Part shown: piece by piece, positions 1 to 46,467 of the stretch
Layout of the letters: the number at the start of each line of letters is the position of its first letter
Numbering within the stretch: position 1 is the stretch's first letter
Origin: an uncultured Erysipelotrichaceae bacterium
GTDB taxonomy: Bacteria > Bacillota_I > Bacilli_A > RFN20 > CAG-826
Length of the DNA stretch: 64,000 nucleotides
Reading direction: 5' to 3'
Assembly (NCBI GenBank): GCA_900315885.1
Contig: ONAT01000004.1
Coordinates: 32,580-96,579 of the forward strand
Translations under genes and position numbers: made by a program
Notes under the pieces: model-generated
Told to the model about the DNA's origin: nothing
The model's database searches: none
The model's input: the letters and a program-made list of their open reading frames with translations, nothing else

Positions 1-444
1 GTTCCAAACACTTATTCGCATTTAGAAAGATGCTTATATGCGACATATCTTACTTATGTTCCAGTGGAAGACTTATGTTATTCTTTAGTTACACATAAAG
101 ATGACAGAGGAGCGTTTGTTGAATTGTTAAAATCAAAATATCATGGACAAGTGTCAATTAACATTGCACATCCTGGCATTACAAAAGGAAATCACTGGCA
201 TAACACTAAAAATGAAAAATTTATTGTTTTAAAAGGGCATTGCCTAATTAAATTAAGAAAAATAGATGGTAATGAGATTATTACTTATGATGTTAAAGAT
301 AGTGATTTAAAAGTTGTGGATATCGCTCCTGGATACACTCACTCTATTCAAAACATAGGCAAAGAAGATTCGATAACATTAATGTGGTCAAGTGAAGTAT
401 TTGACCCTAATAATCTAGACACTATTTACTTGGAGGTGGAATAA
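1..444 (+). CDS. CapF/FnlB-like protein, C-terminal cupin domain; 5' end outside window
   Basis: The frame of ORF 64..444 is open back to base 1. Cupin-type motifs GNHWHNTKNEKF and GYTHSIQN are present. The stop abuts the start of a Cap5G/FnlC-type epimerase gene, the usual order in UDP-L-FucNAc clusters. Confidence 0.6.
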   Translation, partial: VPNTYSHLERCLYATYLTYVPVEDLCYSLVTHKDDRGAFVELLKSKYHGQVSINIAHPGITKGNHWHNTKNEKFIVLKGHCLIKLRKIDGNEIITYDVKDSDLKVVDIAPGYTHSIQNIGKEDSITLMWSSEVFDPNNLDTIYLEVE

Positions 445-1590: not shown

Positions 1591-1600
1591 GTGCACGGTT

Positions 1601-2776: not shown

Positions 2777-2808
2777 AACACTTCACGACGGAAGTGTTTT
2801 ACTTTTTG
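2776..2808. terminator. Rho-independent terminator (hairpin AAACACTTC / GAAGTGTTT then T-run)
   Basis: Perfect 9-bp stem directly after the ugd stop, followed by TTTTACTTTTT. Confidence 0.7.
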
Positions 2809-2969
2809 ATATCTAAGTGTATTTCTTTAAAACAAGGCTCTTCTTGAGGACCTGTTTGCGATTCTTCATATATTATGTCATCACTTGCCATTTCATTGAG
2901 AATCTTTTCTTTGTCTTTTATAATATCAATTCTTTCATATTTTTTATTTTTCTTCCTTTTCTTTTTCAT
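2799..2969 (-). CDS. Small lysine-rich hypothetical protein (56 aa, MKKKRKKNKKYERIDIIKDKEK...)
   Basis: Below the ORF-track cutoff. ATG at 2969 is preceded by AGGTGAAAATATG (SD-like), and the stop lies inside the ugd terminator hairpin. No family recognised. Confidence 0.2.
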   Translation of the reverse strand: MKKKRKKNKKYERIDIIKDKEKILNEMASDDIIYEESQTGPQEEPCFKEIHLDIKK

Positions 2970-3051
2970 ATTTTCACCTCATAGTTATTTTCTTTCATTA
3001 ATTTGTATATAATACTGGTTAAAAATGCTATATTATTTTTAGGTGATTATT

Positions 3052-3579
3052 ATGCATATTTTTAAGCATTTGCACACGATTAACAAGCATCGTCGACTTG
3101 TGCGTAAATATTGTTTTAAACTTGGCATTCCTTGGCAAGGGATGATTCATGATTTGTCCAAATACTCTTTTGTAGAATTTTTTAACGGGGCTAAATATTA
3201 CCAAGGGACTAGAAGTCCAAATGATCGAGAAAGAGAAGTTAAAGGATATTCGGAAGCTTGGATGCACCATAAAGGGAGAAACAAACATCATTATGAATAT
3301 TGGATAGATGTAAATAATGAAACACGTGAATATGAAGCAAAAGAAATACCTATCAAATATCTTAAAGAGATGTTAGCTGATCGTATAGCGGCGTCGCGTG
3401 TTTATAAAGGCAAAGACTATACAGATGCCGCACCATATGACTATTTTGTTACACATATGGCAATTCGTAATATGAATCCTAAAAGCATTGAAATTATGAA
3501 AGATTGGCTTTTATATTTGAAATTACATGGGGAAAAAGAAACAATTAAATACATCAAAAAGAATTATCCTCACAAGTAA
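3052..3579 (+). CDS. Hypothetical protein, DUF5662-like (recollection only)
   Basis: AGGTGA then ATG 3052. The HDLSKYS..EFF...YYQG.RSP...GY..AW.HHKGRNKHHYEYW pattern matches what I recall of DUF5662 proteins. Followed by a terminator. Confidence 0.6.
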   Translation: MHIFKHLHTINKHRRLVRKYCFKLGIPWQGMIHDLSKYSFVEFFNGAKYYQGTRSPNDREREVKGYSEAWMHHKGRNKHHYEYWIDVNNETREYEAKEIPIKYLKEMLADRIAASRVYKGKDYTDAAPYDYFVTHMAIRNMNPKSIEIMKDWLLYLKLHGEKETIKYIKKNYPHK

Positions 3580-3600
3580 TACTTTTATTGAGTATCAATA

Positions 3601-3630
3601 AACACCTTGTTTTTCAAGGTGTTTTTTCTT
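3601..3630 (+). terminator. Rho-independent terminator (AACACCTTG / CAAGGTGTT + T-run)
   Basis: 9-bp perfect stem, loop TTTTT, followed by TTTTTTCTT. Confidence 0.7.
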
Positions 3631-3659
3631 AAAATAATAGCAAGAAGTTGGTGAAGTAC

Positions 3660-5390
3660 ATGTTAAAAAGGTTTGTCTATTATTATAAAGATCATCGTCT
3701 AATGTTCGCATTAGATATGACTGCTTCATTTTTTATTGCTTTAATTGGTTTAGGCTATCCTATTTTAACGAGATTACTTTTACATACCTTTATTCCTAAT
3801 GGGAATGTATCTAAGATTGTTTGGTCTGGTTTAGGACTACTCGGTATTTATGCAGTACGCATGTTGCTTCGTTATTTTATTCAATATTATGGACACGTGA
3901 TTGGTGTTGAAATGCAAGCTCAAATGCGAAGAGATTTATTCAATAAATTACAGAAACTGCCTTATTCTTTTTATGATGAACATGAGTCGGGCAAAATTAT
4001 GTCGCGTATGAGTGTTGATTTAATGGATATAAGTGAATTAGCACATCATGGACCAGAAAACTTCTTTATTTGCGGTATCTCAATTATCGGCTCATTTGTT
4101 TATTTGGCAATTTTCGTTAATCTAACACTTACATTAATTATCTTTGCTTGTGTACCAATTTTAGTAACTATTTCAATTATTTTGAGAAAGCGCATGCTAG
4201 GTGCTTTTAAAAAGTCTCGTGAAGCAATTGCGCTTATTAATGCTTCAGTGGAAAGCAGTATTACAGGTATTAGAGTTACGAAAGCTTTTAATAACACGGA
4301 GAAAGAAACAGAAAAATTCGAACACAGTAATGAAGAATTTGTAAAAGCAAGAACAGGTGTCTTTAAAAATATGGCACAATTTATGTCCACGACTGAATTT
4401 GTCACAGATGCTTTCAATGTTATTGTTATTGTGGCAGGTGGTTTATTCTTAATTCAAGGAAAAATTGATGCGGTAGATTACACGACATTTATTACTTCAT
4501 TAAGCTTGTTCTTATCACCAATCAACACTTTGACAAGATTTATTGAACAACTACAAGATGGAATTACAGGCTTCCAACGTTTCTTAGAAATTATGGATCA
4601 AAAAGAAGAAGACCTTAATTTATCCGGAATTAATTTAAATGATGTTAAGGGCGATATTGAATTAAGGGATGTATCATTTAATTATGAAACATCCGGAGAA
4701 ATCTTACATGATGTCAATTTAAAAATCAAACACGGAACAATGCTTGCTTTAGTGGGAGAATCCGGAGGAGGGAAAACCACGATTTGTCACATTATTCCAA
4801 GATTTTATAAAATAAATTCTGGCCACATATTAATTGATGGACATGATATTGATGACCTTAACATTGTTTCTTTAAGAGACAATATTGGAATAGTTCAACA
4901 AGATGTGTTCTTATTTAATGGCACAATAAGAGATAACATATTATATGGAAAACTTAATGCAACAGAGGAAGAATTAATTGAAGCAAGTAAAAATGCTGGA
5001 ATTTATGATTATGTTATGAGTTTACCTAAAGGTTTTGAGACTGTTGTAGGTGAACGTGGTGTTAAGTTATCGGGTGGACAAAAACAAAGAATATCAATTG
5101 CGAGAGTATTTTTAAAGAATCCAGCAATTCTTATTCTTGATGAAGCGACTTCAGCCTTAGATAACGCGACTGAAATGGCAATTCAAAAAGCTTTAGATAA
5201 TTTAACTAAGGGAAGAACCACGATTGTGGTAGCGCACCGTTTATCCACAATTAAAAACGCTGATGAAATTGCGGTTATTTCTGGTGGAATGGTAAAAGAA
5301 ATAGGTTCACATGAAGAATTATTAAAAAATAGGAAGGAATATTATGCTTTATATCAAGCACAATTTAAAGTAAACGAGAATGAAGACTAA
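3660..5390 (+). CDS. ABC transporter ATP-binding/permease fusion (type I exporter, MsbA-like)
   Basis: N-terminal 6-TM domain. Walker A GESGGGKTT, signature LSGGQKQRISIAR, Walker B ILILDEATSALD. Confidence 0.9.
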   Translation: MLKRFVYYYKDHRLMFALDMTASFFIALIGLGYPILTRLLLHTFIPNGNVSKIVWSGLGLLGIYAVRMLLRYFIQYYGHVIGVEMQAQMRRDLFNKLQKLPYSFYDEHESGKIMSRMSVDLMDISELAHHGPENFFICGISIIGSFVYLAIFVNLTLTLIIFACVPILVTISIILRKRMLGAFKKSREAIALINASVESSITGIRVTKAFNNTEKETEKFEHSNEEFVKARTGVFKNMAQFMSTTEFVTDAFNVIVIVAGGLFLIQGKIDAVDYTTFITSLSLFLSPINTLTRFIEQLQDGITGFQRFLEIMDQKEEDLNLSGINLNDVKGDIELRDVSFNYETSGEILHDVNLKIKHGTMLALVGESGGGKTTICHIIPRFYKINSGHILIDGHDIDDLNIVSLRDNIGIVQQDVFLFNGTIRDNILYGKLNATEEELIEASKNAGIYDYVMSLPKGFETVVGERGVKLSGGQKQRISIARVFLKNPAILILDEATSALDNATEMAIQKALDNLTKGRTTIVVAHRLSTIKNADEIAVISGGMVKEIGSHEELLKNRKEYYALYQAQFKVNENED

Positions 5391-33269: not shown

Positions 33270-33737
33270 GTGAATTTTGATAATTTAAAACCATATGAAT
33301 TCTTTTTTAGTGTTGGTTATGTAACTTTAATAGCGAGTGTATTGACACTTGTAATTACGCAGTTAATAAAAAAGATCTTAACTAAAAAAGGAATTCTATA
33401 TGAAGGTATGGAACAAAGCAAAAGAGATATGTTTTTGTCACGCATTGGACGCATTGTTGCATTATTAAGCTATGTTGCAATTTATCTAATTAACGCATTC
33501 TTAACTAAGCATACTTTGGTGTTAGACAAATCTCTTCTTGCAGGTTTACTGAGTGGAGCATCATTAACTCTTGTTATTGCAAAATCAATTTATACTTCGC
33601 TACATCAATATTTTAAAAAGAAAAATGTTTTTGAGCGACTTGAGTGTTTAGAAAAAGTAATTGATGTTTTAGAAAATGAAGTAAATCAAGATGAAAAAGA
33701 GAAAGTAAATAAATGGCTATTAACTAATAATAAATAG
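33270..33737 (+). CDS. Small 3-TM membrane protein with charged C-terminal tail (holin-like topology)
   Basis: AAGGAGG then GTG 33270. Three hydrophobic segments: FFFSVGYVTLIASVLTLVITQLI, IGRIVALLSYVAIYLINAFL, LLAGLLSGASLTLVIAKSIY. The tail is ...ENEVNQDEKEKVNKW. It ends 9 nt before the Rhs gene. Confidence 0.6.
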   Translation: MNFDNLKPYEFFFSVGYVTLIASVLTLVITQLIKKILTKKGILYEGMEQSKRDMFLSRIGRIVALLSYVAIYLINAFLTKHTLVLDKSLLAGLLSGASLTLVIAKSIYTSLHQYFKKKNVFERLECLEKVIDVLENEVNQDEKEKVNKWLLTNNK

Positions 33738-33746
33738 GAGGACAAC

Positions 33747-36700
33747 ATGAAAAAGATAATAGTAAAAGAAAGTACAAATGAAGTTATAGATTCTTCTATA
33801 AAAGAAGAAAACAAAATCAAAAAAGATGAAAAACAAAAATTTTTTGATATAAAATTTGAAAACAATTTAAAGAATAAAAAAGTTTTTAGTTTAACAAAGG
33901 ACAAACACCAAGTAGATTTATCATTTCTTGGTAGAAAAGGAAAAGAATTAAGTAATGCACAAGGTGTAGAAATTGGTAATCATGTAAAATACACAAATTT
34001 TGAAAAAGGGTTAGATTTATCGTATGACTATCAAGATAATCTTGTTAAGGAAAGTGTAATTATTAATGAAAGAAAAGATAATTATGATTTTAGTTTCTCT
34101 TTAAACATTGGAGAGTTAAAACCAATATATAATTCTGAAACAAGGACATTAGAATTAAAAAATAATGGTAACACAATTTATCGCATTCTTAGCCCATTTA
34201 TGGTCGATAAAAACAATGTAAGAAGTGATGATTGTTCTTATGAAATTGAACAACAAGATAGTAATTTGATGATTAATTTACATTGTGATTCCGATTGGAT
34301 TAATGATGAGAGTCGAGTGTTTCCAGTAGTGGTAGATCCTACAATTGAAGTTGTAGGAGATGTTATACATGTTAAACAATATGTTGATGATAGTATTGAA
34401 GAATCTAGAGGGCTTAAAATTGGGTTAGATAGGTATGGAGTTTATGATTTAGAATTTGTCGTTAACTGCAGTTTGCTTAAAAAGAATATAAATGACTTTA
34501 GTAGAGTTGTTATATCATTGCAGGTTATGTCACATTTAAATGACATGATGTCATCAAATCAAGAGTATCAACTAACTTTTGGTAATAACAAAATATATGC
34601 AATAAGGCATAGCGATATAAAAGATGTCGTTAGATTTGATATTACTGATTTGGTCCTTGAAACATCTACAAACCTTAACTTAAAATTCGGCCCTGTAACA
34701 AGAGATTCTACTATTCAAAAAATAAATGGTAAAGTAATTTATAGATCATTTAAAACCTACTTTTATCCTTTTAGTTATAGTAAAGATGAAAGTAAAAAAT
34801 CAGAACTCATTATTGAATATGATAAGAAAAAGTGTTTTAACAATATAAAAGATTATAATGTTGGTAAATTAAATAGTTTGCTAATCGATATAAGAAATGG
34901 TGATTATAAAATTATTAATGATTTAGACTTTAAGCTTAAGTCGAACACTATTGATTTCGATGTGAAAGCTGTTTATGACAATCAAAATTCAAATAATTAT
35001 TACATGAGTGACTATTGGAAAACCAATTTACATCAAATTTTAGAGAAACCATCTTCTTATCAAAGTGTTTTAGGCGCAACACGAATTACTTATGTTGATG
35101 GCCTAAACAAAAAACATATTCTTATGACAAAATGGTATTATGTAAAAAATAACCAAAAGAACTATGTTCAAAAAAAAGATATATATTTAGATAGCGATGG
35201 AAAGCTCAAATATAATAAAGATGGTCAAGTTTATGAAATTAAAAGCGAAACCACTAATGAAGAAGGTATTACATATGCATCAGGAAATGACATTTCTAAT
35301 TTCAATCAATTAAAGGATTCAACAAAATATCATTACGAGATTAAATGTGGAGTTGGGACAATAAGTGATATCCAAATAATTAATTATACTAGAATTAAAA
35401 TACCAAAATATGTGGAACAAATTGATAGCAATGGAACAGAAGAAGACATTAGATTTGAAAACATAGATATTATAAATGGAAAGTCATTAATTTCCGGAAA
35501 CAATGTCATATTAAAAGGAACACAAGAAGTTGCATTAAAAGCAGACGGAGATGGTCTCTACTTTAAATATCAAGTATATATTGATGATGAAGTTTGCATA
35601 GAAGAACAACGAGTGGATATTAAACCAGATTTAGATAATTATGACGCAAACGATGATATCTATTTAAATGAAGATATCTTAAATATTAATTCACAAATTA
35701 AAAGTATAGAGAACTCTAAAAGACAAGCATATCTATCACTAAATTCTGCGATTACATCAATTCGTAATTTAGATGAACAAATTACATATCAATGGCGACT
35801 TATTGCTAGAACTGGCACTAAAGAATATGATGCTGAATTTAAACGTTTATATGAAGATAATAGTATAGGAATGAAAACTTTAAAAAGTTTTATTACAAAA
35901 TGCAACGATAGTGAAGATTTAAATGGTGCATTTAAATTGGATAGTAATGGCAAATTACAAGTTGTATTAGCGGATAAGGTTAGTGAAACGAAAAATGCAG
36001 GAACTGTATTAAGTGTCATTTCAAATTATTTAACATTATTAGGTAACAAGATTACTTTGCTAAATAAAACTATTGAAAAAGATTACTCCGGTGACTATGA
36101 AAGTTTTCAATTAAAATTATTGAATCGTCAATATAACGATGCAAAAGAACAAATGGAATTAATGATAAATAGTTGCTTTGAATATGATAAACAACTAGAT
36201 TATTTAAAAGGGCAAAAGAATCAATTAGTAAATAGTCAAAAGAAAGAAATAAATGACTTTATTATTGATAAAGATGGCAACACTCTTGGATTTGATGGTT
36301 ACGGACATTTAATTCTTATTCAGGACAGATATGAAAATAAAATAAATATTGAATATGATTATGATGATATTGAGACGGGTAGATTAAGTAGAGTCATAAG
36401 TGATATGAATACTTTAGAATATCATTACAATAAAGTTACTAAATTGTTAGATTATATTGGCGATTCAAGAGGAGTAAATACTAAATTTGTATATATCGGT
36501 GATGAAGAATTGCAATTAAGTTCAATCGCTGGGGCAAAAGAAACCACTACATTTAGTTATGGTAATACTTTCATAATAAAAACGTTATTAAATAGTCTTA
36601 AGTTAATTCATAATGACGATGATACAGTTAGTGTTAAAGAGTATTATTTAAACACAAAAATTGGTGAGAATATAACTTTTGATAGTTCTGTAGACGAAAT

Positions 36701-39700
36701 TAATACAACTGATGATTTATATATTTTTGATACAACAAGTTATTTAAAAACAATTATTAGAGATAAGAAAACAAATAATAGTAATGATTTAAATGAAACG
36801 AAAGAAGATGAAGTATATTACTTTTCATCATCTGGAAAATGTGTTAAGAATGTAACTGATGAATTTGTAAACGTATCTTATTACAATCTTGACTTACTTA
36901 AACAAGAGGCAACTTATAGAAATAACGATGAAGTGATTATAAAGCCATTAACAATATATGGAGAAAGTCATGAATATAGTTTCGATTTGACTAGTAACAA
37001 TAATGAGTTATTAAACAAGATAAAGCAAGCAGACCTTATTGGACTTAAATTAGTTTTAAACACAGGAAATGTTGATAACATAGGTATTCTTGATTTGGCT
37101 TTAAGAGTTGATGTTACTACGAGCACTAATAAAGTTGAAACCTTCAGCGAGTCATTCCAAGAGCTTAAACTCCAAGAAGTTGTGTTACCTATTTTTGTTA
37201 ATACAAGTAATATCAAAAAGTTAGTCATAAATGTTACGAGTAAGTCTAGTGACTTCAATGATAGTTATATAGATGTTCTTGACCTTATTGCCTTAGAAAA
37301 TGGTGCCACTTATAAATACGATAATAAAGATAGGTTGATATATAAACAAGATAAAGAAGCAAAGATAACTTATAGCGATTTCGATGCTCATGACAACCCT
37401 TTACAATCAGTTAGTGTTGATAAGTATGACGCAACAGTGACTACTAAATATGCATACGATGTTGAAAATAGATTGACATACGTTGAAGATTCTTTAGGCA
37501 ATGTTAACGAATATTATTACGATGATAATGGACAATGCATTAAAAAGAGATCGTATAATAAAGAAGATGCTTCTTTAGTGCGTCAAGAAACATATGAATA
37601 TGATGATAAAGGACGTATTAAAGATAAAAAAGGACCAATTAAAAATAAAAATAAGGACTATCCTTTAGAACATATTGAATACTTACCTCATAGTGAAGTA
37701 ACCTCAAAGGTTATAGGATATAATAAACTAGCTACAAATTATACCTATGACTATTTAACTAATGACTTATTGTCAATAAGTGCAAGTGCAGATGGTATTA
37801 GTAATTCAAATTCATTTGGCTATACAAAGGGTTTCTTGACATCTGTTTCAAGTCGTGGAGTTAAGGTTAAGTATGTGTATGATGGAAGAGGCAGAATTGA
37901 GTCTATATATCTTAATGATGATAGTGAAGACAATATTGATGGTGATATTGAAGATGATAAAAAGGCTTTTATAAGTAATGCTTATGTCGACAATTATAAT
38001 AGTAATCCAAGTAGTCTAGAAAACGACTTAAATATTAAATATGGCACATATCAAAAATCCACATATAAAAATGGATTAGAGGAAGGCATCTTTACTAACT
38101 CAAAAGGCCAAGTTTTAAGAGTGGAAACTGAAGAAACGGATAGAACTATTAGAATTGATAATACATATGATTCAAATGGTAATATTACAAATACACAAAG
38201 CACAATAACTGAAGGCGATGTTGTAACAACAGAAGATGTTACTTACACATATGATAGTCATAAAAAATTAACTAAAATGGTTAAAAAGATTGATGATGAA
38301 AGTGTATATGAAATAGAGTATGAATATAACGATAGAGATTTAATGGATGGCGAAACTATAAAACTAGATGGTGAAGACATTGAGACTGGATATGATTATG
38401 ATTTAAAAAGAAGGATAACACATGCTCTTCAAGATAATTACAATTGTGATATTACATATGATGCCCTAGATCGTATTACTCATAAAGAAGTCGGAGAAGG
38501 TAACGTTACGATTTGTCATACGTACTCTTATCTTAAAGAAGAAGATAATAGTTTAGATTTAATCGCTAGTGATATCGTTAAAGTCAAAGTGGTAAATGGT
38601 GATAATACAACTTATCAAATTGAAACTAATAGATATAGTTACGACGAAATGGGAAATATCATAGAAATAGATTGTGATGAAAGTAAAACAAGATATAAAT
38701 ATGATGCCTTAAGTAGATTAGAAAGAGAAGATAATCCATCTTTAAATAAAACTATAGTTTATAAGTATGATGAAAAAGGAAATGTCATTTTGAAAAAGAC
38801 CTATTCATATACATTAGATGATAAACTAGAAGAAACTCCTGTCATAGATGAGTATGTGTATTCATGTTCTAATTGGGGAGATCAATTGATTGATTATAAT
38901 GGTAAAACCTTTAAATATGACAATATGGGAAGACCATTAGTGTATAAAGGCGATACATGTACATGGAGTCAACGAGGTGAATTAAAGAGTGTAAAGAAAG
39001 ACAATCAAGAAGCATTTAAATACTATTATGACGCGAATGGTATACGAAACAAGAAAATAGTGAATGGCGTAGAAACAAAATTCGTAGTAGTGGGAACAAA
39101 GATACTAAAAAGCATCATAAAGGTAGGAAATGAAGAAAGAACAATAAAATACAAATACGTTCTAGATAAATTAGAAGGATTTGTATATACTAAAGATGGA
39201 ATATCAAAAGAGTATAGATACGAACGAAATATATTTGGAGATATTACAAGGCTATATAATAGTGAGGGAAGCATAGAAGCAACATATGTATATGATGCAT
39301 ATGGAAGGGTAAAAGTAATAAACTCAATAGGCGAAGAAGACACTAATATAGAATTCATAGGTAATATAAATCCATTTAGATATCGTGGATATTATTTTGA
39401 TATTGAAACAGGATTGTATTACTTAAATAGTAGATATTATGATCCAGAGTTAGGAAGATTTATAAGTCCAGATACAATGGAATATTTAAGCCCTAACAAT
39501 ATTAATGGATTGAATTTATATTGCTATTGTAATAATAATCCGATTAATAAATACGACTCTACAGGACACTTTGGAATTTGGGCAATTATAGGAATTGTAT
39601 GGGCTGCGATTCTTTTAGGAGGAGGGGCTCAATTGGCATCCAATGCACTTGCTGGTGAAACAGGTAGTGATTTATGGCGAGGAGTTGCTGGTTCAGCATT

Positions 39701-40130
39701 GGGTTCTGGTGTAAATGCATTGGCATTAATTTTGGCTCCATTTACTGGGGGAGCCTCATTAGCATTTGCCGCTGGGTTAGGGGCTGTGGTTCAAACTGGC
39801 GTTGATACACTCGAAACAGTTATTAGAGGCGAAAATGTGAATGGTTTGCAAACAGTTGCTGACCTAGGTATTAATTTTGTTACTACATTTGCTGGTAACT
39901 GGTTGGGGGCAAAATTGGTTCCTACGAACAGTGGTTGGTTTCAAACGAAAAATTTCTTGAGTGTATTTATAAAACCTTATGGACAAAAAATTTTATTACA
40001 AACTGCAATTGGTGCTGGACTATCAGGAACTGTCAATTTTGCAAGAAAATTTGACTGGAGTAGTATTGATTGGAGAAAGTTTGTACCAGCAATACCTGTT
40101 CCAATGATTCCAATTTATCCGTATTTTTAG
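33747..40130 (+). CDS. RHS/YD-repeat polymorphic toxin, 2127 aa, no N-terminal signal peptide
   Basis: AGGAGG RBS. Many YD repeats from about residue 845 onward (YEYDDKGRIKDK, YTYDSHKKL, YKYDALSRLERED, YVYDAYGRV). RHS core end RYYDPELGRFISPD...NLYCYCNNNPINKYDSTGH. Confidence 0.95.
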   Translation: MKKIIVKESTNEVIDSSIKEENKIKKDEKQKFFDIKFENNLKNKKVFSLTKDKHQVDLSFLGRKGKELSNAQGVEIGNHVKYTNFEKGLDLSYDYQDNLVKESVIINERKDNYDFSFSLNIGELKPIYNSETRTLELKNNGNTIYRILSPFMVDKNNVRSDDCSYEIEQQDSNLMINLHCDSDWINDESRVFPVVVDPTIEVVGDVIHVKQYVDDSIEESRGLKIGLDRYGVYDLEFVVNCSLLKKNINDFSRVVISLQVMSHLNDMMSSNQEYQLTFGNNKIYAIRHSDIKDVVRFDITDLVLETSTNLNLKFGPVTRDSTIQKINGKVIYRSFKTYFYPFSYSKDESKKSELIIEYDKKKCFNNIKDYNVGKLNSLLIDIRNGDYKIINDLDFKLKSNTIDFDVKAVYDNQNSNNYYMSDYWKTNLHQILEKPSSYQSVLGATRITYVDGLNKKHILMTKWYYVKNNQKNYVQKKDIYLDSDGKLKYNKDGQVYEIKSETTNEEGITYASGNDISNFNQLKDSTKYHYEIKCGVGTISDIQIINYTRIKIPKYVEQIDSNGTEEDIRFENIDIINGKSLISGNNVILKGTQEVALKADGDGLYFKYQVYIDDEVCIEEQRVDIKPDLDNYDANDDIYLNEDILNINSQIKSIENSKRQAYLSLNSAITSIRNLDEQITYQWRLIARTGTKEYDAEFKRLYEDNSIGMKTLKSFITKCNDSEDLNGAFKLDSNGKLQVVLADKVSETKNAGTVLSVISNYLTLLGNKITLLNKTIEKDYSGDYESFQLKLLNRQYNDAKEQMELMINSCFEYDKQLDYLKGQKNQLVNSQKKEINDFIIDKDGNTLGFDGYGHLILIQDRYENKINIEYDYDDIETGRLSRVISDMNTLEYHYNKVTKLLDYIGDSRGVNTKFVYIGDEELQLSSIAGAKETTTFSYGNTFIIKTLLNSLKLIHNDDDTVSVKEYYLNTKIGENITFDSSVDEINTTDDLYIFDTTSYLKTIIRDKKTNNSNDLNETKEDEVYYFSSSGKCVKNVTDEFVNVSYYNLDLLKQEATYRNNDEVIIKPLTIYGESHEYSFDLTSNNNELLNKIKQADLIGLKLVLNTGNVDNIGILDLALRVDVTTSTNKVETFSESFQELKLQEVVLPIFVNTSNIKKLVINVTSKSSDFNDSYIDVLDLIALENGATYKYDNKDRLIYKQDKEAKITYSDFDAHDNPLQSVSVDKYDATVTTKYAYDVENRLTYVEDSLGNVNEYYYDDNGQCIKKRSYNKEDASLVRQETYEYDDKGRIKDKKGPIKNKNKDYPLEHIEYLPHSEVTSKVIGYNKLATNYTYDYLTNDLLSISASADGISNSNSFGYTKGFLTSVSSRGVKVKYVYDGRGRIESIYLNDDSEDNIDGDIEDDKKAFISNAYVDNYNSNPSSLENDLNIKYGTYQKSTYKNGLEEGIFTNSKGQVLRVETEETDRTIRIDNTYDSNGNITNTQSTITEGDVVTTEDVTYTYDSHKKLTKMVKKIDDESVYEIEYEYNDRDLMDGETIKLDGEDIETGYDYDLKRRITHALQDNYNCDITYDALDRITHKEVGEGNVTICHTYSYLKEEDNSLDLIASDIVKVKVVNGDNTTYQIETNRYSYDEMGNIIEIDCDESKTRYKYDALSRLEREDNPSLNKTIVYKYDEKGNVILKKTYSYTLDDKLEETPVIDEYVYSCSNWGDQLIDYNGKTFKYDNMGRPLVYKGDTCTWSQRGELKSVKKDNQEAFKYYYDANGIRNKKIVNGVETKFVVVGTKILKSIIKVGNEERTIKYKYVLDKLEGFVYTKDGISKEYRYERNIFGDITRLYNSEGSIEATYVYDAYGRVKVINSIGEEDTNIEFIGNINPFRYRGYYFDIETGLYYLNSRYYDPELGRFISPDTMEYLSPNNINGLNLYCYCNNNPINKYDSTGHFGIWAIIGIVWAAILLGGGAQLASNALAGETGSDLWRGVAGSALGSGVNALALILAPFTGGASLAFAAGLGAVVQTGVDTLETVIRGENVNGLQTVADLGINFVTTFAGNWLGAKLVPTNSGWFQTKNFLSVFIKPYGQKILLQTAIGAGLSGTVNFARKFDWSSIDWRKFVPAIPVPMIPIYPYF
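39570..40127 (+). other. Rhs C-terminal toxin domain (186 aa, glycine/alanine-rich, hydrophobic)
   Basis: Starts right after the core-terminating NNPINKYDSTGH motif. Small-xxx-small glycine-zipper-like runs: LLGGGAQLASNALAG, GVAGSALGSGVNALALILAPFTGGASLAFAAGLGAVV, AIGAGLSG. Confidence 0.7.
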
Positions 40131-40140
40131 AGGTGAAAAT

Positions 40141-40528
40141 TATGATTATTAAAGATAAATTAATAAAAGAGTATCCGCTAACTAAAAAAATAGATTGTTC
40201 TTTTGAATGCTTTGAAGTTATGAAAAGAAGGTATGTTATTTTTTATGATGAAAAAATCAATAAAGAAAATATGGAATCTTTATTGGATGTATTTAATGAT
40301 AATTCGAAAAATAGCTTTACAGAAAAAAGAACATTAATTATAGTTGGGCATACGGATGAAAAGTTTAATAAAAAAGATTTATTGTTTTTTAACGGAGTTG
40401 ATACATTTGTTGTTTATTATTTAATAAATGATAACAACAAAGAAATTTACTTTAATGATCAAAGAGTGTTCTGGTTCAGTGTTGATTGGAAAAAAATAAT
40501 TAAAAAATTTAATGAAATATTAAAATAA
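40141..40528 (+). CDS. Candidate cognate immunity protein (129 aa, soluble)
   Basis: GAGGTGA RBS overlaps the Rhs stop, and the ATG is 10 nt after it. This is the canonical immunity position. No family recognised. Confidence 0.6.
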
Positions 40529-40555
40529 ATAGTGAATTTCTTTCACAAGCAAAAC

Positions 40556-40598
40556 TAGGTAAGTTTACTCAATGGGTAAGCTTACCTTTATTTTTTAT
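40556..40598 (+). terminator. Rho-independent terminator after the toxin-immunity pair
   Basis: AGGTAAGTTTAC / GTAAGCTTACCT hairpin followed by TTATTTTTT. Confidence 0.65.
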
Positions 40599-40620: not shown

Positions 40621-40818
40621 AATTCACGATTTCTATTTACAAAAATCTTTTAAATATTTCATCTGAATGTTAAAATTAAAATAAAGATAGGGGTGAAATA
40701 ATACACGGGTTAATAATGTAATAACAATATAATGTAAAAAAATTAAAAAAATTCATATAATTATTTTCAAAATATTTATATACAATATTTTAGAAAATAT
40801 ATTAGTTAGCTAATTAGA
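40621..40818 (+). repeat. Direct repeat copy 1 (198 nt), upstream region of the 40844 cassette
   Basis: Aligns with 43444..43631. I count 4 substitutions, one 9-nt tandem duplication (AAAAAAATT) and a 1-nt indel. Confidence 0.9.
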
Positions 40819-40843: not shown

Positions 40844-41053
40844 ATGAAAAAAAAGACGTTTTATCAAACTAATATTTTTTGGCAGTTATTTTGTTTTGTG
40901 TTTCTTGCAATTTTTATATTGATTTTTATAGTCACTGTGCAATGTATTATTGCAATTATAAAAAATGGATTTGGTAAAACAATTTCCGATATAATGGCCT
41001 CTGTGTTTATATTAGCAGTACTTGTTATTGGTTGTTCATTGGCGTTAATCTAA
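40844..41053 (+). CDS. 2-TM N-terminal half of an interrupted 2TM+PH-like gene
   Basis: 69 aa with two hydrophobic helices. Its TAA at 41051 is in frame with ORF 41105..41449, and no other stop lies between them. Confidence 0.5.
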   Translation: MKKKTFYQTNIFWQLFCFVFLAIFILIFIVTVQCIIAIIKNGFGKTISDIMASVFILAVLVIGCSLALI

Positions 41054-41104
41054 TTCATTATTTTAGAACACAACAATGTTCATTTAACAAAAGACAAAAT
41101 ATAT

Positions 41105-41449
41105 ATGAACAATGATTGGAATCCAAAGAAAGATAAAATACAATATTATACTGAAGCATATTTTGCTGATATTGAATCTATTGATATTATTTGGACAAAA
41201 ATGGATTCTAGAGGTAAATTGATTAGACCTAAGCTTATCTCTGCTTCAGTAGAAAAGCCATATTTATCTATAAAAACTAAAGATGGTAAAATATCTAATT
41301 TCTTTGTCATGTATATTCCGAAGAAAAATGTAATAAAAATAATAAATGAAATTAGTTATCGAATGAAAAGTGTAGGGAACAATATTAAGATTATTAATTC
41401 CGATGAAGCATATTTAAAAATTAAGAAAAAAATTTATATCGATATCTAG
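41105..41449 (+). CDS. Soluble C-terminal half of the interrupted 2TM+PH-like gene
   Basis: Same frame as 40844..41053. No SD precedes ATG 41105. The layout matches the soluble halves of 44667..45080 and 45979..46467. Confidence 0.45.
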   Translation: MNNDWNPKKDKIQYYTEAYFADIESIDIIWTKMDSRGKLIRPKLISASVEKPYLSIKTKDGKISNFFVMYIPKKNVIKIINEISYRMKSVGNNIKIINSDEAYLKIKKKIYIDI

Positions 41450-41503
41450 ATATTAAATTATTAAATAGTCACATGAACTAGCAAGAGTATAACTGTTTCA
41501 AGA

Positions 41504-41522
41504 TGTCTTTTTTTAAAAGACA
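41504..41522 (+). repeat. 19-bp palindrome copy 2: TGTCTTTT-TTT-AAAAGACA
   Basis: Perfect 8-3-8 inverted repeat. Confidence 0.9.
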
Positions 41523-41577
41523 AATTTTTCTAAAATTAAAATAGTAAATTGCGATAACACAATTTATCAATTGAATA

Positions 41578-41862
41578 TTGCTAGATTCAATCAAACAATT
41601 AATCAATTGGCATGGCGGAATTGCCTTACTGATTGCTTTCGGAATAAGTACTGTTTTAGGTGGTGTATATGGAAGCGTATCAGTTGCTGAAAGTATACTT
41701 TATGATATTAATAATCCTTATGGGTTTAGAGACTGTGATTGGGGAGAATTTAAACTACATCCAGATCTAGACTTAGAAGAAAAAATTAATCAATTTGAAA
41801 TATTAGGAGATTATAAAGAAGACTTAAGAAAAAGAAGAGAAAAATGGTATAAAGAAGTATGA
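41578..41862 (+). CDS. Small single-TM protein (94 aa) coupled to the cyclase gene
   Basis: TTG start with no obvious SD. Glycine-rich TM GGIALLIAFGISTVLGGVYGSV. The stop TGA overlaps the GAGGTG RBS of the cyclase, whose ATG is 8 nt downstream. Confidence 0.35.
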   Translation: MLDSIKQLINWHGGIALLIAFGISTVLGGVYGSVSVAESILYDINNPYGFRDCDWGEFKLHPDLDLEEKINQFEILGDYKEDLRKRREKWYKEV

Positions 41863-41870
41863 GGTGATAA

Positions 41871-42620
41871 ATGATGTATGAATATGATTATATAAACGGA
41901 AAAAGAAGAGTAAACGAGATACTAAATGATTCCAATGAAATTGAGGCAAAAGAGAAAGTACCAAAAGAAAATGATTTTACTTTTCATAATGGTTATTTTG
42001 CTTGGGTTACTGCTGTATTTGTTGACATAAGGGATTCAACATCAATTTTCACAGAAAATAAGAAGACTTCAACTTCAAAAATTATAAGAGCATTTACTTC
42101 CGAAGTAATTGGAATTTTAAAGGACGACGATAATTTGCGCGAAATTGGTATTAGAGGAGATTGTGTATATGCTATCTATACTACATCCCAAAAATACGAA
42201 GATTATGAAATTGCGAATAAAGTGTTTTATGTAAATACTTTTATGAAAATGTTAAATAAATTATTGCAAAACAAAAACATGAAAACTATTAAAGTTGGGA
42301 TTGGCGTTTCTACAGCACAAGAACTAGTTGTTAAAGCCGGAAGAGAAAAAACTGGCATTAATAACTTAGTATGGATTGGAAAAGCGGTAACTTATGCTTC
42401 TAAATTTTCTTCTTTAGCAAATTCTAATGATTATAATAACATTATTTTTTCCGACAACTTTTATAATAGTTTTATTGGGGATTTAAAAAATAACAATAAA
42501 AATAAAAATGTTGAATCTTGGTTTAAGCAACATAGAGATAGCAAATTGGGTTATTTTTACGACTGTGACATAATCAAATCAGAATTCAATGATTGGATTG
42601 AAAATGGTATGAAAGGATAA
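41871..42620 (+). CDS. Stand-alone class III nucleotidyl cyclase (Pycsar PycC-like)
   Basis: Cyclase homology-domain motifs in order: AVFVDIRDSTSIF (metal Asp 1), IRGDCVYAIY (metal Asp 2), IKVGIGVSTAQELVVKAG, VWIGKAVTYASKFSSLA. 249 aa with no other domain. Confidence 0.7.
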   Translation: MMYEYDYINGKRRVNEILNDSNEIEAKEKVPKENDFTFHNGYFAWVTAVFVDIRDSTSIFTENKKTSTSKIIRAFTSEVIGILKDDDNLREIGIRGDCVYAIYTTSQKYEDYEIANKVFYVNTFMKMLNKLLQNKNMKTIKVGIGVSTAQELVVKAGREKTGINNLVWIGKAVTYASKFSSLANSNDYNNIIFSDNFYNSFIGDLKNNNKNKNVESWFKQHRDSKLGYFYDCDIIKSEFNDWIENGMKG

Positions 42621-42635
42621 CAAAGGAGAGTTTAG

Positions 42636-43142
42636 ATGAACAAAAATGAAGAAAAATATGAAATTTTATCTGGGATAAGTAATCAAATATCATCTTTTGA
42701 TAATAAAGCGAGCATTTTAATTTCAGCTATAGGAATTGTTTTCGCATTATCTTTATCTTTCTTAGATGTGTTTTGTGAAGATGATTTTTTATCAAAATGT
42801 CAAATTTTTAAAATAATTTACTATGCATTATTTATATTATTTATTATCAATACAATTGTTGTAATAGGTTCATATATATTAGTTATTATTCCTAGGAAGA
42901 AAATTGGAAATAATAAATATGCAAATTATTATAACGACATTGCTGATTTAGATATTTATGGTCATAAGGAATATGATGATTTGTTAGAAGATTATACAAA
43001 AAACGATAATTTACTTACAGAACAAATTATTATTAATTCAAAGATATGTAAAACCAAACATTTATTTTTGAAAGTTGGTATAATATCATTAATACCATTT
43101 TCAATATTGTTATTGGTTCTTATTGTACTGACAATAATTTAA
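42636..43142 (+). CDS. Multi-TM effector (Pycsar PycTM-like)
   Basis: AAGGAG RBS 15 nt after the cyclase stop. N-terminal helix with the SFDNKASILISAIGIV motif as I recall it for Pycsar effector domains. 3-4 hydrophobic segments, 168 aa. Confidence 0.65.
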   Translation: MNKNEEKYEILSGISNQISSFDNKASILISAIGIVFALSLSFLDVFCEDDFLSKCQIFKIIYYALFILFIINTIVVIGSYILVIIPRKKIGNNKYANYYNDIADLDIYGHKEYDDLLEDYTKNDNLLTEQIIINSKICKTKHLFLKVGIISLIPFSILLLVLIVLTII

Positions 43143-43351
43143 TTAACAAATATTAAATACGAGATTCCTGCTTTTTTAATATGTAAACTATGTTTTCTGG
43201 TTTCATCAAGGTGTGATGGCACAAGATGCTGTGGCAGATTGTAATCAGTCTTATCTACTTTACGAAACATGATTGATTTTATAGAAAAAGTTTTAAAAAC
43301 TGAGTTTTTAATACCTTCTTTAGCCTATTAGGTGTAAGGAGGTATTTTTAT

Positions 43352-43465
43352 ATGATGCAAATTGTTTTAAATAAGAATACATATTTTATTAACGAATCAT
43401 TTAATGGGGCAACAAGAACATTAATCAATATTCTTAAGAATAGAATTCACTATTTCTATTTATAA
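43352..43465 (+). CDS. Small ORF (37 aa), possibly a truncated gene remnant
   Basis: Strong AAGGAGG RBS. Its 3' end (KNRIHYFYL*) lies inside direct repeat copy 2. Copy 1 has CAA where this copy has the TAA stop. Confidence 0.3.
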   Translation: MMQIVLNKNTYFINESFNGATRTLINILKNRIHYFYL

Positions 43466-43631
43466 AAATCTTTTAAATATTTCATCTGAATGTTAAAATT
43501 AAAATAAAGATAGGGGTGAAATAATATACGGGTTAATAACGTAATAACAATATAATGTAAAAAAATTCATATAATTATTTTCAAAATATTTATATACAAT
43601 ATTTTAGAAAATATATTAGTTAGTAATTAGA
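43444..43631 (+). repeat. Direct repeat copy 2 (188 nt), upstream region of the 43644 cassette
   Basis: See copy 1. The similarity ends just before the RBS of the downstream gene in both copies. Confidence 0.9.
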
Positions 43632-43643
43632 GGGAGACTATCT

Positions 43644-44246
43644 GTGATTATATTTAAAAGAGAAAAAAATGCATTGTTGAAATTTAAGCAATATATAGAA
43701 GGGGAAATGGATTTTGATACTTTCTGGCAAGAATATATTGCTTGTGGCGATTTAATGAAATATTTATGCAAGTTTGATCAAAGAAGGCGTGAAGAATTTT
43801 TGATTAATAATGATTTCATAAATTATTTTTATAACGGAAAACCTGCTTTTCAGTTAAAAGTTGGCTTACAGGCATCAATAATGGCATATTTGAAGAAAAG
43901 AAAAATTAAATTTGAAAACAAAACAAAAGAATATGTTCTATGGGAAAAATGGAATAGTTATATACCAGATTTTGTTCCTTGTAATGAATCAATGTATTAT
44001 TTTATGGAAAACTTAGACAATGGCGTTAGACACTCAAAAAAATATTATCGTGACTATTTTTCAAAGATTTATCAATACGTAAAATATTATCCGCGATGGT
44101 TGCAAATGTGCGAATGGCCTATGGATGATGATGGAACCCCAACTAAATTCTTGTATCAAACTGGTTTTCCTAATAAACATGATTTTATTGAGTATTGGTT
44201 TCTAAAAAAAGATGGTACAAAAATTAAAATAGAACAATACGATTAA
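43644..44246 (+). CDS. Hypothetical soluble protein (200 aa), immunity-protein-like
   Basis: AGGGAG then GTG 43644. Trp/Tyr-rich. No catalytic motif recognised. Confidence 0.55.
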   Translation: MIIFKREKNALLKFKQYIEGEMDFDTFWQEYIACGDLMKYLCKFDQRRREEFLINNDFINYFYNGKPAFQLKVGLQASIMAYLKKRKIKFENKTKEYVLWEKWNSYIPDFVPCNESMYYFMENLDNGVRHSKKYYRDYFSKIYQYVKYYPRWLQMCEWPMDDDGTPTKFLYQTGFPNKHDFIEYWFLKKDGTKIKIEQYD

Positions 44247-44313
44247 TGAGTGCTCAATGTCGGGGACTACAATTAGTGACTTGGTTTTTTTGAAAATTAA
44301 ATGGCTATTAGTA

Positions 44314-44486
44314 GTGTTTAGATGTGTTACTAAAAACGGATTAAAGGTTGCTGAAGTTGTCAGTAAAGACCAGACTTATGTTAGTCAAGTTGCTAAAGTT
44401 GAAGAATGATTGGACAATATTCTCATATATCTAATGGACTAACTCTAGATGCTTTACTATTTATTACAAAATGGTTTGTATTCTAA
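44314..44486 (+). pseudogene. Decayed XRE-type HTH gene remnant (two frames)
   Basis: 44314..44409 reads ...GLKVAEVVSKDQTYVSQVAKVEE*. Shifted frame 44412..44486 reads GQYSHISNGLTLDALLFITKWFVF*. Together they resemble an HTH_3 fold broken by a frameshift. Confidence 0.3.
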
Positions 44487-44534
44487 AAATATCTATTTTT
44501 TTGATTAATGATTAATTGTTTGGAGGTGCATTAT

Positions 44535-44645
44535 GTGAATTCTAAATTTACTTTAAGATTCTTGGCAGCACTAATTGCTGGTGGAACAGAAACTGCCTAT
44601 GATTTAACATCATATTTAATTGGGAAATTAATTTCAGCTTTTTAG
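44535..44645 (+). CDS. Small ORF (36 aa, VNSKFTLRFLAALIAGGTETAYDLTSYLIGKLISAF)
   Basis: GGAGGTG precedes GTG 44535. It ends 12 nt before the RBS of the next gene. It may be a peptide or an orphan toxin-tail fragment. Confidence 0.25.
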   Translation: MNSKFTLRFLAALIAGGTETAYDLTSYLIGKLISAF

Positions 44646-44666
44646 TCATTAGGAGGATTGATTATT

Positions 44667-45080
44667 TTGAAACAAAAATTTTATAAAAATTTATTTCAAA
44701 CGATGTCATATTTTGCTGTAATAATAATTTTCGAGGTGTTTTTACTTATTGGTTTTTTTGCTAGTTTAAGTTATGGTCAAAATTTTGGTTGGATACTATT
44801 GATAATATCTTTATCTTTAATTGCATTATTCTATCTAATAGGGTTTTATTGGATTTTCCAAATAGTATCTATTGATGAACATGGAATTAAAATATTATTC
44901 AAAAGTAAAATTGTTAAGCAACTTAAATGGGAAGAAATAGATACAATAGAAGAAGCAAATATAATGAGAAATCCAGCACTAAGAATTAAAGCATTTGATG
45001 GAAGTGAAATTCATTTAGATAAAAGAAAACAAATTGTTAAAGCGATAGAAATATATTCGCAAAATAAAATAATAAAATAA
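44667..45080 (+). CDS. 2-TM + PH-like small membrane protein (paralog B)
   Basis: AGGAGG at 44651-44656. TTG 44667 has better spacing than TTG 44658. Two TM helices, then a soluble IVSIDEHGIKILFKSKIVKQLKWEEIDTIE... domain. Confidence 0.6.
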   Translation: MKQKFYKNLFQTMSYFAVIIIFEVFLLIGFFASLSYGQNFGWILLIISLSLIALFYLIGFYWIFQIVSIDEHGIKILFKSKIVKQLKWEEIDTIEEANIMRNPALRIKAFDGSEIHLDKRKQIVKAIEIYSQNKIIK

Positions 45081-45172
45081 TTTTATTTAACGCACTGTAA
45101 AAACAGATATTATTAGATTAGTAGGAGACATTGCAAGTTCAATATTCAATAATTTTTAGGAGGACATAAACT

Positions 45173-45358
45173 ATGTGGGAATTTATTAAATATTGTCTAT
45201 ATTGTTTATTAATGTCAATCTCTGCTGCTTTTGGAAACAATCCTGAGGGAATGACATTCAAACACGCAATAGTTGGAAGTATTACAATGTTTGTATTATT
45301 AGGATTAGCTTTGGGCATTCTTTGGTTAATTGCAAGGGTTGTTAATAAATCTAGATAA
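45173..45358 (+). CDS. Small 2-TM membrane protein (61 aa)
   Basis: TAGGAGGA RBS 7 nt upstream. Two hydrophobic segments. Confidence 0.5.
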   Translation: MWEFIKYCLYCLLMSISAAFGNNPEGMTFKHAIVGSITMFVLLGLALGILWLIARVVNKSR

Positions 45359-45396
45359 AATGTAACTTACAAGGTTTATATAGGAGATTAGTTTTA

Positions 45397-45702
45397 ATGG
45401 AAAAACAAAAAAAGAAAAAAACATTAAAATATACAAAATGTTTTAAAGTATATGAAAAAGAATTAACATGGGATTTATTTATTAAATATTTAAATGATAA
45501 TATGGAATTTTGCTTTTATTTGAATGATATAACAATTGATATTGCTTTTCATTATAAGGACAAAATAAAAGTATATGAATTAAATATTTCTTCAGGTGAA
45601 AATAGAACTAATTTAAATTTTAATTCAATAGATGAACTTATTTCTTTTAAAGCTTTTAACAATAAATCACTTTATGATATTTGGGACGAATTAGAGAATT
45701 AA
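45397..45702 (+). CDS. Hypothetical small soluble protein (101 aa)
   Basis: TAGGAGA RBS. Followed by a terminator. No family recognised. Confidence 0.5.
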   Translation: MEKQKKKKTLKYTKCFKVYEKELTWDLFIKYLNDNMEFCFYLNDITIDIAFHYKDKIKVYELNISSGENRTNLNFNSIDELISFKAFNNKSLYDIWDELEN

Positions 45703-45727
45703 TTAATAAATTAACATCTCATTAGTT

Positions 45728-45769
45728 AGATGCATTTGCTACATTAAAGTAGTAGATGCATCTTTTTTT
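45728..45769 (+). terminator. Rho-independent terminator
   Basis: AGATGCAT...ATGCATCT outer stem plus CTAC/GTAG inner stem, followed by TTTTTTT. Confidence 0.6.
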
Positions 45770-45865
45770 GTGTGTAAAGAAATTTTAATAATATTTTTAA
45801 AATTGACCCTCACATTTGTTATTTTAAATGCCCAGTACTATTGAAGGGGGACTCAATTGTTTAAA

Positions 45866-45884
45866 TGTCTTTTCAGAAAAGACA
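45866..45884 (+). repeat. 19-bp palindrome copy 3: TGTCTTTT-CAG-AAAAGACA
   Basis: Perfect 8-3-8 inverted repeat. Confidence 0.9.
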
Positions 45885-45978
45885 AATTAAATCTGTTTTT
45901 TTGATAGATTTCAAATGTTGATTAGCAAAAAATAAAAGCAACTTTTTATAATTGTGATATGATTAAGAAAAAGGAGCT

Positions 45979-46467
45979 ATGGTTTTTGTGAAAAAGATTT
46001 ATTCAAATAAGTCCGTTATTTACTTTTCAATCTTTGGGATTGTTTTTATATCAATAATAATGATTTTGAGTATTATTTCCTTAATGTCTAATGTGGAAGA
46101 AACTACAAATAATATTCTTATGATTATTGTGTTGATATTAATATATTTATTCTTTTTAGTGTTGTTTGTTTTTTCGTTAAATAAATTTGGATATAAAGTA
46201 ATATATGATAGTAATAAAAAAGTTATTTCTAAAAAAGGATTTATCTTTGGACACGAATACCAAATAAAGCTAGAAGATATAAAAGAAGTGGCGGTGTTAT
46301 CACTACCAAAAGAAACAGCTTATTATGTTTTAACTGATTCAAAAGATGATAAACAAGAATCATTTATTAAAATTAAGAAAACAAAAAAGAATGAGGCTTT
46401 TGTAAAACAATTTTGGGATAAAGCAATTAAGGAATACGAAGATTACGAAGAATTGTTTAATAAATAA
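45979..46467 (+). CDS. 2-TM + PH-like small membrane protein (paralog C)
   Basis: AAGGAG RBS. Two TM helices, then YKVIYDSNKKVISKKGFIFGHEYQIKLEDIKEVAV... and a C-terminal helix. Confidence 0.6.
   Translation: MVFVKKIYSNKSVIYFSIFGIVFISIIMILSIISLMSNVEETTNNILMIIVLILIYLFFLVLFVFSLNKFGYKVIYDSNKKVISKKGFIFGHEYQIKLEDIKEVAVLSLPKETAYYVLTDSKDDKQESFIKIKKTKKNEAFVKQFWDKAIKEYEDYEELFNK

Follow-up and report, generated by a model that had tools for sequence, protein, structure and literature searches.

What are the small membrane-protein genes for that follow a large Rhs gene in an uncultured Erysipelotrichaceae bacterium, and against what, if anything, would their products protect the cell? The question is raised by a window of 64,000 nucleotides (nt), meaning the whole stretch of DNA analysed, which is part of contig C38 (ONAT01000004.1 of assembly GCA_900315885.1) of a 1.32 Mb genome with about 30% G+C and 96.9% completeness. 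Downstream of a full-length, resident Rhs/YD-repeat gene, an array on the + strand contains three genes whose products are called here A (40844..41449), B (44667..45080) and C (45979..46467). A preliminary description had given these genes the same coordinates and a common layout, both of which were found to be correct by analysis of open reading frames (ORFs) and transmembrane (TM) segments, and had read them as an array of immunity or orphan immunity genes or, alternatively, as parts of another defence function. The analysis reported here makes it very likely that A, B and C are orphan immunity genes, independent of one another and each left over from a different Rhs cassette of a toxin tip and its immunity gene, with the three remnants stacked 3' of the resident Rhs gene.

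This reading is carried by the genomic context of related loci in other genomes, labelled L001 to L054. Elsewhere, members of each family lie 7-25 nt behind, or overlap, that family's own type of glycine-zipper Rhs C-terminal domain of about 200 amino acids (aa), referred to as the tip, and in some genomes all three families occupy the position of an orphan rhsI-type gene, on the same strand as an Rhs toxin domain and directly 3' of it. A survey of the context of homologues had been proposed in the preliminary description, and in that survey homologues of all three families adjoin Rhs toxin tips. When nineteen toxin-immunity pairs were compared, 24 locus pairs had similar immunity proteins, and in 20 of these the tips were alike as well. 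The A-, B- and C-type tips are mutually distinct. All tips are composed to 30-45% of Gly, Ala and Ser and contain 12-30 overlapping small-xxx-small-xxx-small motifs. The orphan-immunity reading put forward earlier stands on two observations: relatives of all three proteins are found directly behind glycine-zipper Rhs tips, and a stub of 36 toxin codons precedes B.

Protein C (162 aa) has its own AGGAG site 5 nt before the ATG, and an intrinsic-terminator-like hairpin lies between its gene and the preceding one. A full scan of 1.84 billion protein representatives returned 109 relatives. Family members with 56-71% identity are encoded about 20 nt behind full-length Rhs proteins or tips in L035, L036, L039, L040 and L043, and the C-type tip has the C-terminal sequence ...IDILRNRKNQK...NQ.YAY.F. 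The C-family gene stands behind frameshifted remains of such a tip in L037 and L044, and it is an orphan in L033, L034, L041 and L042. The wider C superfamily has a match in 14 genomes of a 399-genome sample of the class; among 12 distant superfamily loci taken from other genomes of this sample, as single-gene-size matches, eight have a glycine-zipper tip that ends within a few bases of the gene start or overlaps it, and one has a short remnant. The genome of the window also has a second C-family gene, which encodes 160 aa and lies on contig C32, in an array (5..4287) at the contig edge. In that array, two orphan Rhs tips (277 and 199 aa) and their downstream genes, encoding a 192-aa protein with C-terminal TM helices, a 103-aa ORF and a 285-aa lipoprotein-like ORF, come before the 160-aa C-family gene.

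Protein B starts with TTG at 44667, about 10 nt after an AGGAGG sequence, and its 137-aa product is the same as in its relatives, of which 264 matches were found. The stub in front of it (44535..44645, + strand) consists of the last 36 codons and the stop codon of its cognate toxin gene: in a tblastn comparison, 44535..44642 is 81% identical to the last 36 residues of a 331-aa orphan Rhs C-terminal domain (Rhs-CT) in L002 (E 1e-12), and the homology of the window DNA to B-type toxin-bearing loci starts at 44533. A glycine-zipper Rhs-CT ends 10-22 nt 5' of the B-family gene in all ten loci with upstream sequence (L001-L006, L046-L049). The ORF of the B-type tip runs from the end of the conserved Rhs core into a hydrophobic domain of about 200 aa, rich in Gly, Ala and Ser, with the C-terminal sequence ...SKFALRFL..LIAGGTEA.YD..SYL.GKL.S.F, and upstream of B relatives at 96% identity the toxin is whole and has the same tail. 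When B (44667..45077) is compared with one such relative, at 10001..10411 of L046, the changes are solely non-synonymous (dN 0.015, dS 0.000, 137 codons); they are too few for a test and are compatible with relaxed or changed selection after the loss of the toxin.

Protein A is encoded in one frame of 201 codons, and its sole interruption is a TAA at 41051-41053 (codon 70, at the end of the second TM helix), where the closest relative, P0122, with 97% identity, has Glu. Most of the 85 relatives are intact at 201 aa, and A itself is best described as a putatively inactivated or decayed gene, lost through this nonsense codon. In L011-L013, the A relative overlaps by 29 nt the 3' end of a 215-aa glycine-zipper tip rich in Gly, Ala and Ser. 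The arrangement in L013 is that of a 1958-aa Rhs ORF that stops at the core end, followed by the 215-aa tip ORF, which starts with MFVDPSG and so contains the Rhs core-end motif DPSG; in L011 and L012 this tip occurs as an orphan. The A family is found as an orphan elsewhere too: the synteny of L008-L010 with the window extends through the M29 peptidase, but these loci have no Rhs gene, and L050-L054 are toxin/immunity arrays.

The ratio of non-synonymous to synonymous substitution rates (dN/dS) is 0.2-0.35 between family members in all three families, and because of this and of their many conserved relatives, A, B and C are regarded as real genes. The same ratio bears on another explanation, by which the three proteins would be accessory factors for the export, maturation or membrane insertion of toxin tips, and not antidotes. 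In its favour, the families co-vary with the tip and not with the Rhs shell, and the Rhs proteins are signal-less, which leaves their way out of the cell to be explained. Persistence as orphans without a toxin, at a dN/dS of this size, fits protection and not export, and the place directly 3' of the tip is the canonical position of an immunity gene, which leaves a role as accessory factors very unlikely.

No A-, B- or C-type cognate tip was found elsewhere in this 96.9%-complete genome, and A, B and C would therefore protect only against toxins fired by other strains. A search for toxin remnants 5' of A and C gave only a non-significant 17-residue match that overlaps A's own start; for both genes, homology to toxin-bearing loci reaches no further upstream than about 16-23 nt from the start codon (16 nt from the ATG in the case of C). 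A 61-aa ORF with two TM segments, located between B and C (45173..45358, + strand), is 67% identical to a 66-aa ORF directly behind a different glycine-zipper tip in L046 and L049, which makes it a probable fourth orphan gene for membrane immunity, from another family that has no PH domain. A candidate toxin stub of 20 codons in front of this ORF (45097..45156) was not significant (E 0.45).

A, B and C are alike in their layout: the N-terminus is rich in Lys, a short loop connects two hydrophobic helices, and a soluble tail follows. The inter-helix loops, of 7-10 residues (KNGFGKTISD, SYGQNFG and SNVEETTNN), are neutral to acidic, and since a loop with no net positive charge follows a Lys-rich N-terminus, both termini would, by the positive-inside rule, be cytoplasmic. 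According to the preliminary description, the soluble domain begins with a beta-like stretch, ends in a basic helix and resembles a PH domain. AlphaFold2 models of C and A have both elements where they had been foreseen. The model of C (24-row alignment; pLDDT 85, pTM 0.68) has an N-terminal strand (residues 4-8), TM helices at 11-37 and 42-70, six strands within 72-133 and a helix at 136-143. In a Foldseek search of the PDB with this model, PH-superfold domains make up all of the top 10 matches and the majority of the first 50, including the N-terminal and middle domains of SSRP1/Pob3, Spt16, Vps36, Sin1, GRK2 and a PTB domain, and the best match has an E-value of 2.5e-3, a probability of 1.0 and a TM-score of 0.58 (target length). 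The model of A (22-row alignment, with the stop read as Glu; pLDDT 78, pTM 0.65) has TM helices at 11-41 and 47-76, six strands within 79-154 and a helix at 160-176; the Btk PH domain takes all of the first 32 places among its PDB matches (best E 5.5e-3, TM-score at most 0.39, root-mean-square deviation about 6 Å). As a prediction, the PH-like fold holds well for C and fairly for A. In the case of B, which has two TM helices and a 73-residue tail, the likeness to PH domains is inferred from its alignment to C over the full length and from a sequence intermediate between the two, and not from a model of its own, so that the PH-like assignment proposed for all three stands on models for A and C and on sequence for B.

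The common layout had also led to the three genes being called paralogous, as a family diversified in place, and this part of the description did not hold. Pairwise BLASTP among A, B and C gave no match (E > 1), comparison of family profiles by hhalign was not significant for A with C (51% probability over 22 columns) or for A with B (10%), and each protein pairs with a different toxin type. The alignment check proposed with that claim had a mixed outcome, in that A stayed unlinked and C and B matched with 81% probability (E 1.2e-5), a match confined to the N-terminus and TM region, where the signal is located in the N-terminal KKxFYxN motif and the first TM helix. An iterative search with hidden Markov models (HMMs) seeded with the C family, with E-values computed for a database size of 10^6, picked up B-family members at E ~2e-4 before the model contained any B sequence, and at no stage did it pick up A. 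An intermediate protein encoded behind an Rhs tip in L021 aligns to a B-type protein (28% identity over 130 residues, E 6e-5) and to a C-type protein (24% over 158 residues, E 6e-4). B and C are thus probably remote homologues, and A has the same architecture with no sequence relation to B or C that these comparisons could detect. The treatment of all three as demonstrable homologues was dropped, since the alignment of their soluble domains was not significant. A stretch of the form xEDIxxV is in the same register in every comparison and stands at the start of the fourth strand in the models, which is consistent with structural equivalence and is not significant alone.

Several points weigh against the reading of A, B and C as orphan immunity genes with a common architecture. 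The toxin activity of the tips is proposed from their composition alone. Many family members, including all three in the window, are orphans, and the adjacency to tips is seen in only part of the loci. With best values of 2.5e-3 and 5.5e-3 for C and A, the Foldseek E-values of the models are modest, and A has low TM-scores (0.3-0.4). When the soluble domains alone were aligned by hhalign, neither B with C (0.3%) nor A with B plus C (3%) was significant, and it is the first of these that counts here. An assembly error may be responsible for the TAA in A. Finally, neither the tips nor the putative immunity proteins are covered by Pfam, NCBIfam or PADLOC.

The searches of described families bear on two further explanations. 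In Pfam, no family was found above threshold for A, B, C or their family members, no match was found for the four toxin tips, and the Imm families, including Imm17, were absent from the scans of A, B, C and their family members; the WxW motif and the Arg between the helices that mark Imm17 are not in the inter-helix loops of the three proteins. In NCBIfam, the family NF041635 (STM3941_fam), which has a curated cut-off of 40 bits, matched B at 27.3 bits (E 2.8e-6) and C at 11.4 bits, all below that cut-off, and did not match A, and 4 of 75 C-family members matched it at E<=0.1 (best 7.7e-4). Profile searches of PDB sequences with the C and B families returned only noise. Two TM helices and a bacterial PH domain are the architecture of YdbS, and the C-family profile weakly matches a YdbT-like protein (E 3.5e-6 per genome), so A, B and C might be housekeeping membrane proteins of the YdbS/YdbT type (bPH_2, PF03703) that are located in the island by chance. 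None of A, B and C had a match to the bPH_2 family itself at E<=1, and of 75 C-family members only 2 reached E~0.08. This explanation is made extremely improbable by that result, by the patchy distribution in 14 of 399 genomes of the class, by the tight link to toxin tips, and by the fact that a conserved, toxin-independent synteny across the order was not seen.

The second explanation gives A, B and C a part in phage defence, as effectors or sensors, for example as membrane effectors related to the neighbouring Pycsar module, in line with the preliminary description, which had named sensors or effectors of another defence function as its alternative. A Pycsar anti-phage pair is located mid-way in the immunity array (41871..43142, + strand) and consists of the cyclase PycC (41871..42620; Pfam Guanylate_cyc) and the effector PycTM (42636..43142; Pfam PycTM at threshold). 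The three small two-TM proteins share the island with this pair, and short TM proteins are common among abortive-infection effectors. PADLOC detected both controls, PycC (1.3e-86) and PycTM (3.8e-19), and assigned none of A, B and C to a family at E<=0.01; the Pycsar pair is complete without them; and the relatives examined stand beside Rhs tips or in Rhs toxin/immunity arrays, where Pfam annotations and inspection of ORFs found no cyclase or other Pycsar gene adjoining. The alternative of a different defence function is set aside on these grounds, and a phage-defence role is regarded as highly improbable.

Could any of the three instead serve the Rhs protein next to which they lie? The resident Rhs protein (33747..40130, + strand; 2127 aa, identified by its ORF and an RHS_repeat match in Pfam) ends in a tip of about 190 residues that starts with DSTGH at residue 1937 (nt ~39555..40127) and is hydrophobic and rich in Gly, Ala and Ser. 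Its last 208 residues are 58% identical to an Rhs tip in L011, and this L011 tip is directly followed by a soluble 130-aa ORF with 42% identity to the 128-aa protein encoded behind the resident Rhs gene (40142..40528, + strand), in which no TM segment was detected. An orphan copy of the 128-aa protein occurs in L046 (46% identity). The pair of resident-type tip and soluble partner is kept in L011, and the conserved partner of the resident payload is therefore a soluble protein, which makes the 128-aa protein the candidate cognate immunity protein of the resident tip. The idea of the preliminary description that the three genes guard against the neighbouring Rhs payload was not supported, given the different tip types with which they are found elsewhere and the soluble 128-aa partner that the resident tip has of its own. 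In a weaker form it would say that at least one of A, B and C gives membrane-side immunity to the resident tip and complements the soluble protein, as ExiCD does ExiAB in immunity to EsxX, a toxin that requires both soluble and membrane immunity (PMC12744356). The resident tip is likewise glycine-zipper-like, and L011 has a 295-aa orphan, distantly related to the resident tip (36% identity), that is followed by a 151-aa two-TM/PH-like protein of the C superfamily. Against this stand the pairing of A, B and C, each with a different tip type elsewhere, the presence in L011 of the soluble partner alone directly behind the closest resident-type tip, and the state of the genes in the window, where A is broken and B carries the stub of a different toxin; such a second layer of immunity is considered unlikely. 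In other loci, tips related to the resident tip use two-TM/PH-like partners. As judged from these sequence comparisons, A, B and C are not partners of the resident tip and came with other tips or were left behind when tips were lost.

As orphan immunity proteins, A, B and C would act at the membrane. Each is predicted to be an inner-membrane protein in which a hairpin of two TM helices has both its ends inside and the PH-like β-sandwich on the cytoplasmic face. The cognate tip would be an all-helical glycine-zipper domain, presumably membrane-depolarising or pore-forming by the precedents described below, that is delivered by neighbouring cells. The immunity protein would meet the inserted toxin within the membrane, where the TM hairpin and the juxtamembrane PH surface may bind toxin helices and so keep them from assembling into a conducting oligomer. 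The strongest conservation is concentrated at the cytoplasmic end of the second TM helix and in the first PH strands and loops, which suggests that the working surface is the cytoplasmic membrane interface. Near-invariant residues are N68, R85, G87, G91 and I101 in the C family, and G62-Q68, D73-K78, W91, E93, I94 and N105-A107 in the B family. The N-terminal strand that is predicted to join the sandwich in C may account for the conserved N-terminal motif.

Some known systems resemble the proposed pairs. The Rhs toxin Tse5 of Pseudomonas aeruginosa (RhsP1, PA2684) has a hydrophobic helical tip, Tse5-CT, that inserts in the membrane, forms ion-selective pores and depolarises the cell, and it is countered by Tsi5 (PA2683), a small inner-membrane protein with two predicted TM regions that is encoded beside the tip (PMC9637101, PMC10684867); the likeness of Tsi5 to A, B and C is one of description only. 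Tse5 is delivered by a type VI secretion system in a Gram-negative bacterium, whereas the host of the window belongs to the Bacillota and has lost the toxins of A, B and C, and a PH-like cytoplasmic domain, predicted for A and C, is not described for Tsi5 in those two papers. EsxX of Staphylococcus aureus ST398 is a toxin of the glycine-zipper class that depolarises membranes; the membrane proteins ExiCD counter it from outside and also occur as orphans, in antitoxin islands of strains without the toxin (PMC12744356). Soluble immunity to the same toxin class is known from the EsxX system and proposed for the 128-aa partner in the window. Unlike the tips discussed here, EsxX belongs to the LXG toxins of the type VII secretion system and not to the Rhs proteins; the polytopic proteins ExiC and ExiD work together as a pair, and ExiAB belong to the DUF5085 proteins (PMC12744356); no homology of ExiAB or ExiCD to A, B and C was seen in the Pfam scans. 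Further precedents for toxins with membrane immunity are TspA/TsaI and TelE/TipE (PMC12744356).

The locus as a whole resembles the orphan rhs-CT/rhsI and cdiA-CT/cdiI modules and the polyimmunity loci, in which spare tips, immunity genes and decayed stubs stand 3' of a full-length toxin gene and, as in the window, immunity genes outlive their toxins (PMC3482391). This type of locus is textbook knowledge, and membrane immunity to a pore-forming Rhs tip is known from Tsi5. In the catalogue of Zhang et al. 2012, Imm-CdiI and Imm17 are the sole two-TM immunity proteins, and a PH-like fold is mentioned solely for EsaC, a component of the type VII secretion system, with no PH-like immunity family (PMC3482391); A, B and C have no sequence match to Imm17 or to any Imm family of Pfam. 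In their predicted architecture they are like YdbS and YdbT, with a TM pair at the N-terminus and, behind it, a small PH-like β-sandwich that lies on the cytoplasmic side and has a C-terminal helix, and they differ from them in that there is no significant sequence match and that their families adjoin toxins and not conserved housekeeping neighbours. A full-text literature search, limited to open-access papers, found no relevant PH-type immunity protein. What is new, in the literature searched, is the two-TM/PH-like immunity architecture together with the toxin-tip families.

A broader proposal goes beyond the three genes. Proteins with two TM helices and a cytoplasmic PH-like domain might form a large, uncatalogued immunity superfamily for the glycine-zipper Rhs toxins of Bacillota, with the A type possibly of independent origin, in which the pore would be neutralised from the cytoplasmic face by the PH domain, either by plugging or by sequestering the cytoplasmic loops of the toxin. 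This proposal is a tentative one and is rather doubtful at present. If it were true, PH-type immunity at the cytoplasmic face would be a mode undescribed for any pore-forming polymorphic toxin, and since a soluble protein can deal with related tips instead, the loci might reveal how a single class of toxin is countered in different compartments.

Orphan immunity genes are of interest as a record of the weapons carried by a bacterium's neighbours, and this gut bacterium, with its small genome, has no fewer than three, probably four, candidate antidotes to membrane toxins that it does not make itself. The glycine-zipper tips and their two-TM/PH-like partners are missing from Pfam, NCBIfam, PADLOC and the catalogue of polymorphic toxins, and they are therefore annotated as hypothetical proteins; with names for these families, gut metagenomes would be better profiled for toxin and immunity genes. 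The pairs, compact and testable, could show how a membrane-inserted toxin is neutralised and what role, if any, the PH domain has in it.

The genes of the array lie on the + strand between an M29 aminopeptidase gene and a P-type ATPase gene, along with some further features. Just 5' of the Rhs gene, 33270..33737 encodes a small membrane protein of 155 aa, and a counterpart with 46% identity is found in the same pre-Rhs position in L013. A Gly-rich ORF of 94 aa (41578..41862) ends 8 nt before the start of the cyclase gene, and ORFs of 200 aa (43644..44246) and 101 aa (45397..45702) precede the B stub and protein C, respectively. A direct repeat of 198 bp with 93% identity is present at 40621..40818, 5' of A, and at 43444..43631, 5' of the 200-aa ORF, and could mark either a common promoter or leader region or a scar left by recombination between cassettes. 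Two intergenic stretches, 40492..40595 and 45701..45767, carry strong terminator-like hairpins (40557-40587 and 45728-45763, respectively); both have 74-85% identity to intergenic regions of toxin/immunity arrays in other genomes (L001-L004, L003, L011-L013, L025, L028, L033, L034), and these hairpin-bearing stretches appear to travel along with the cassettes.

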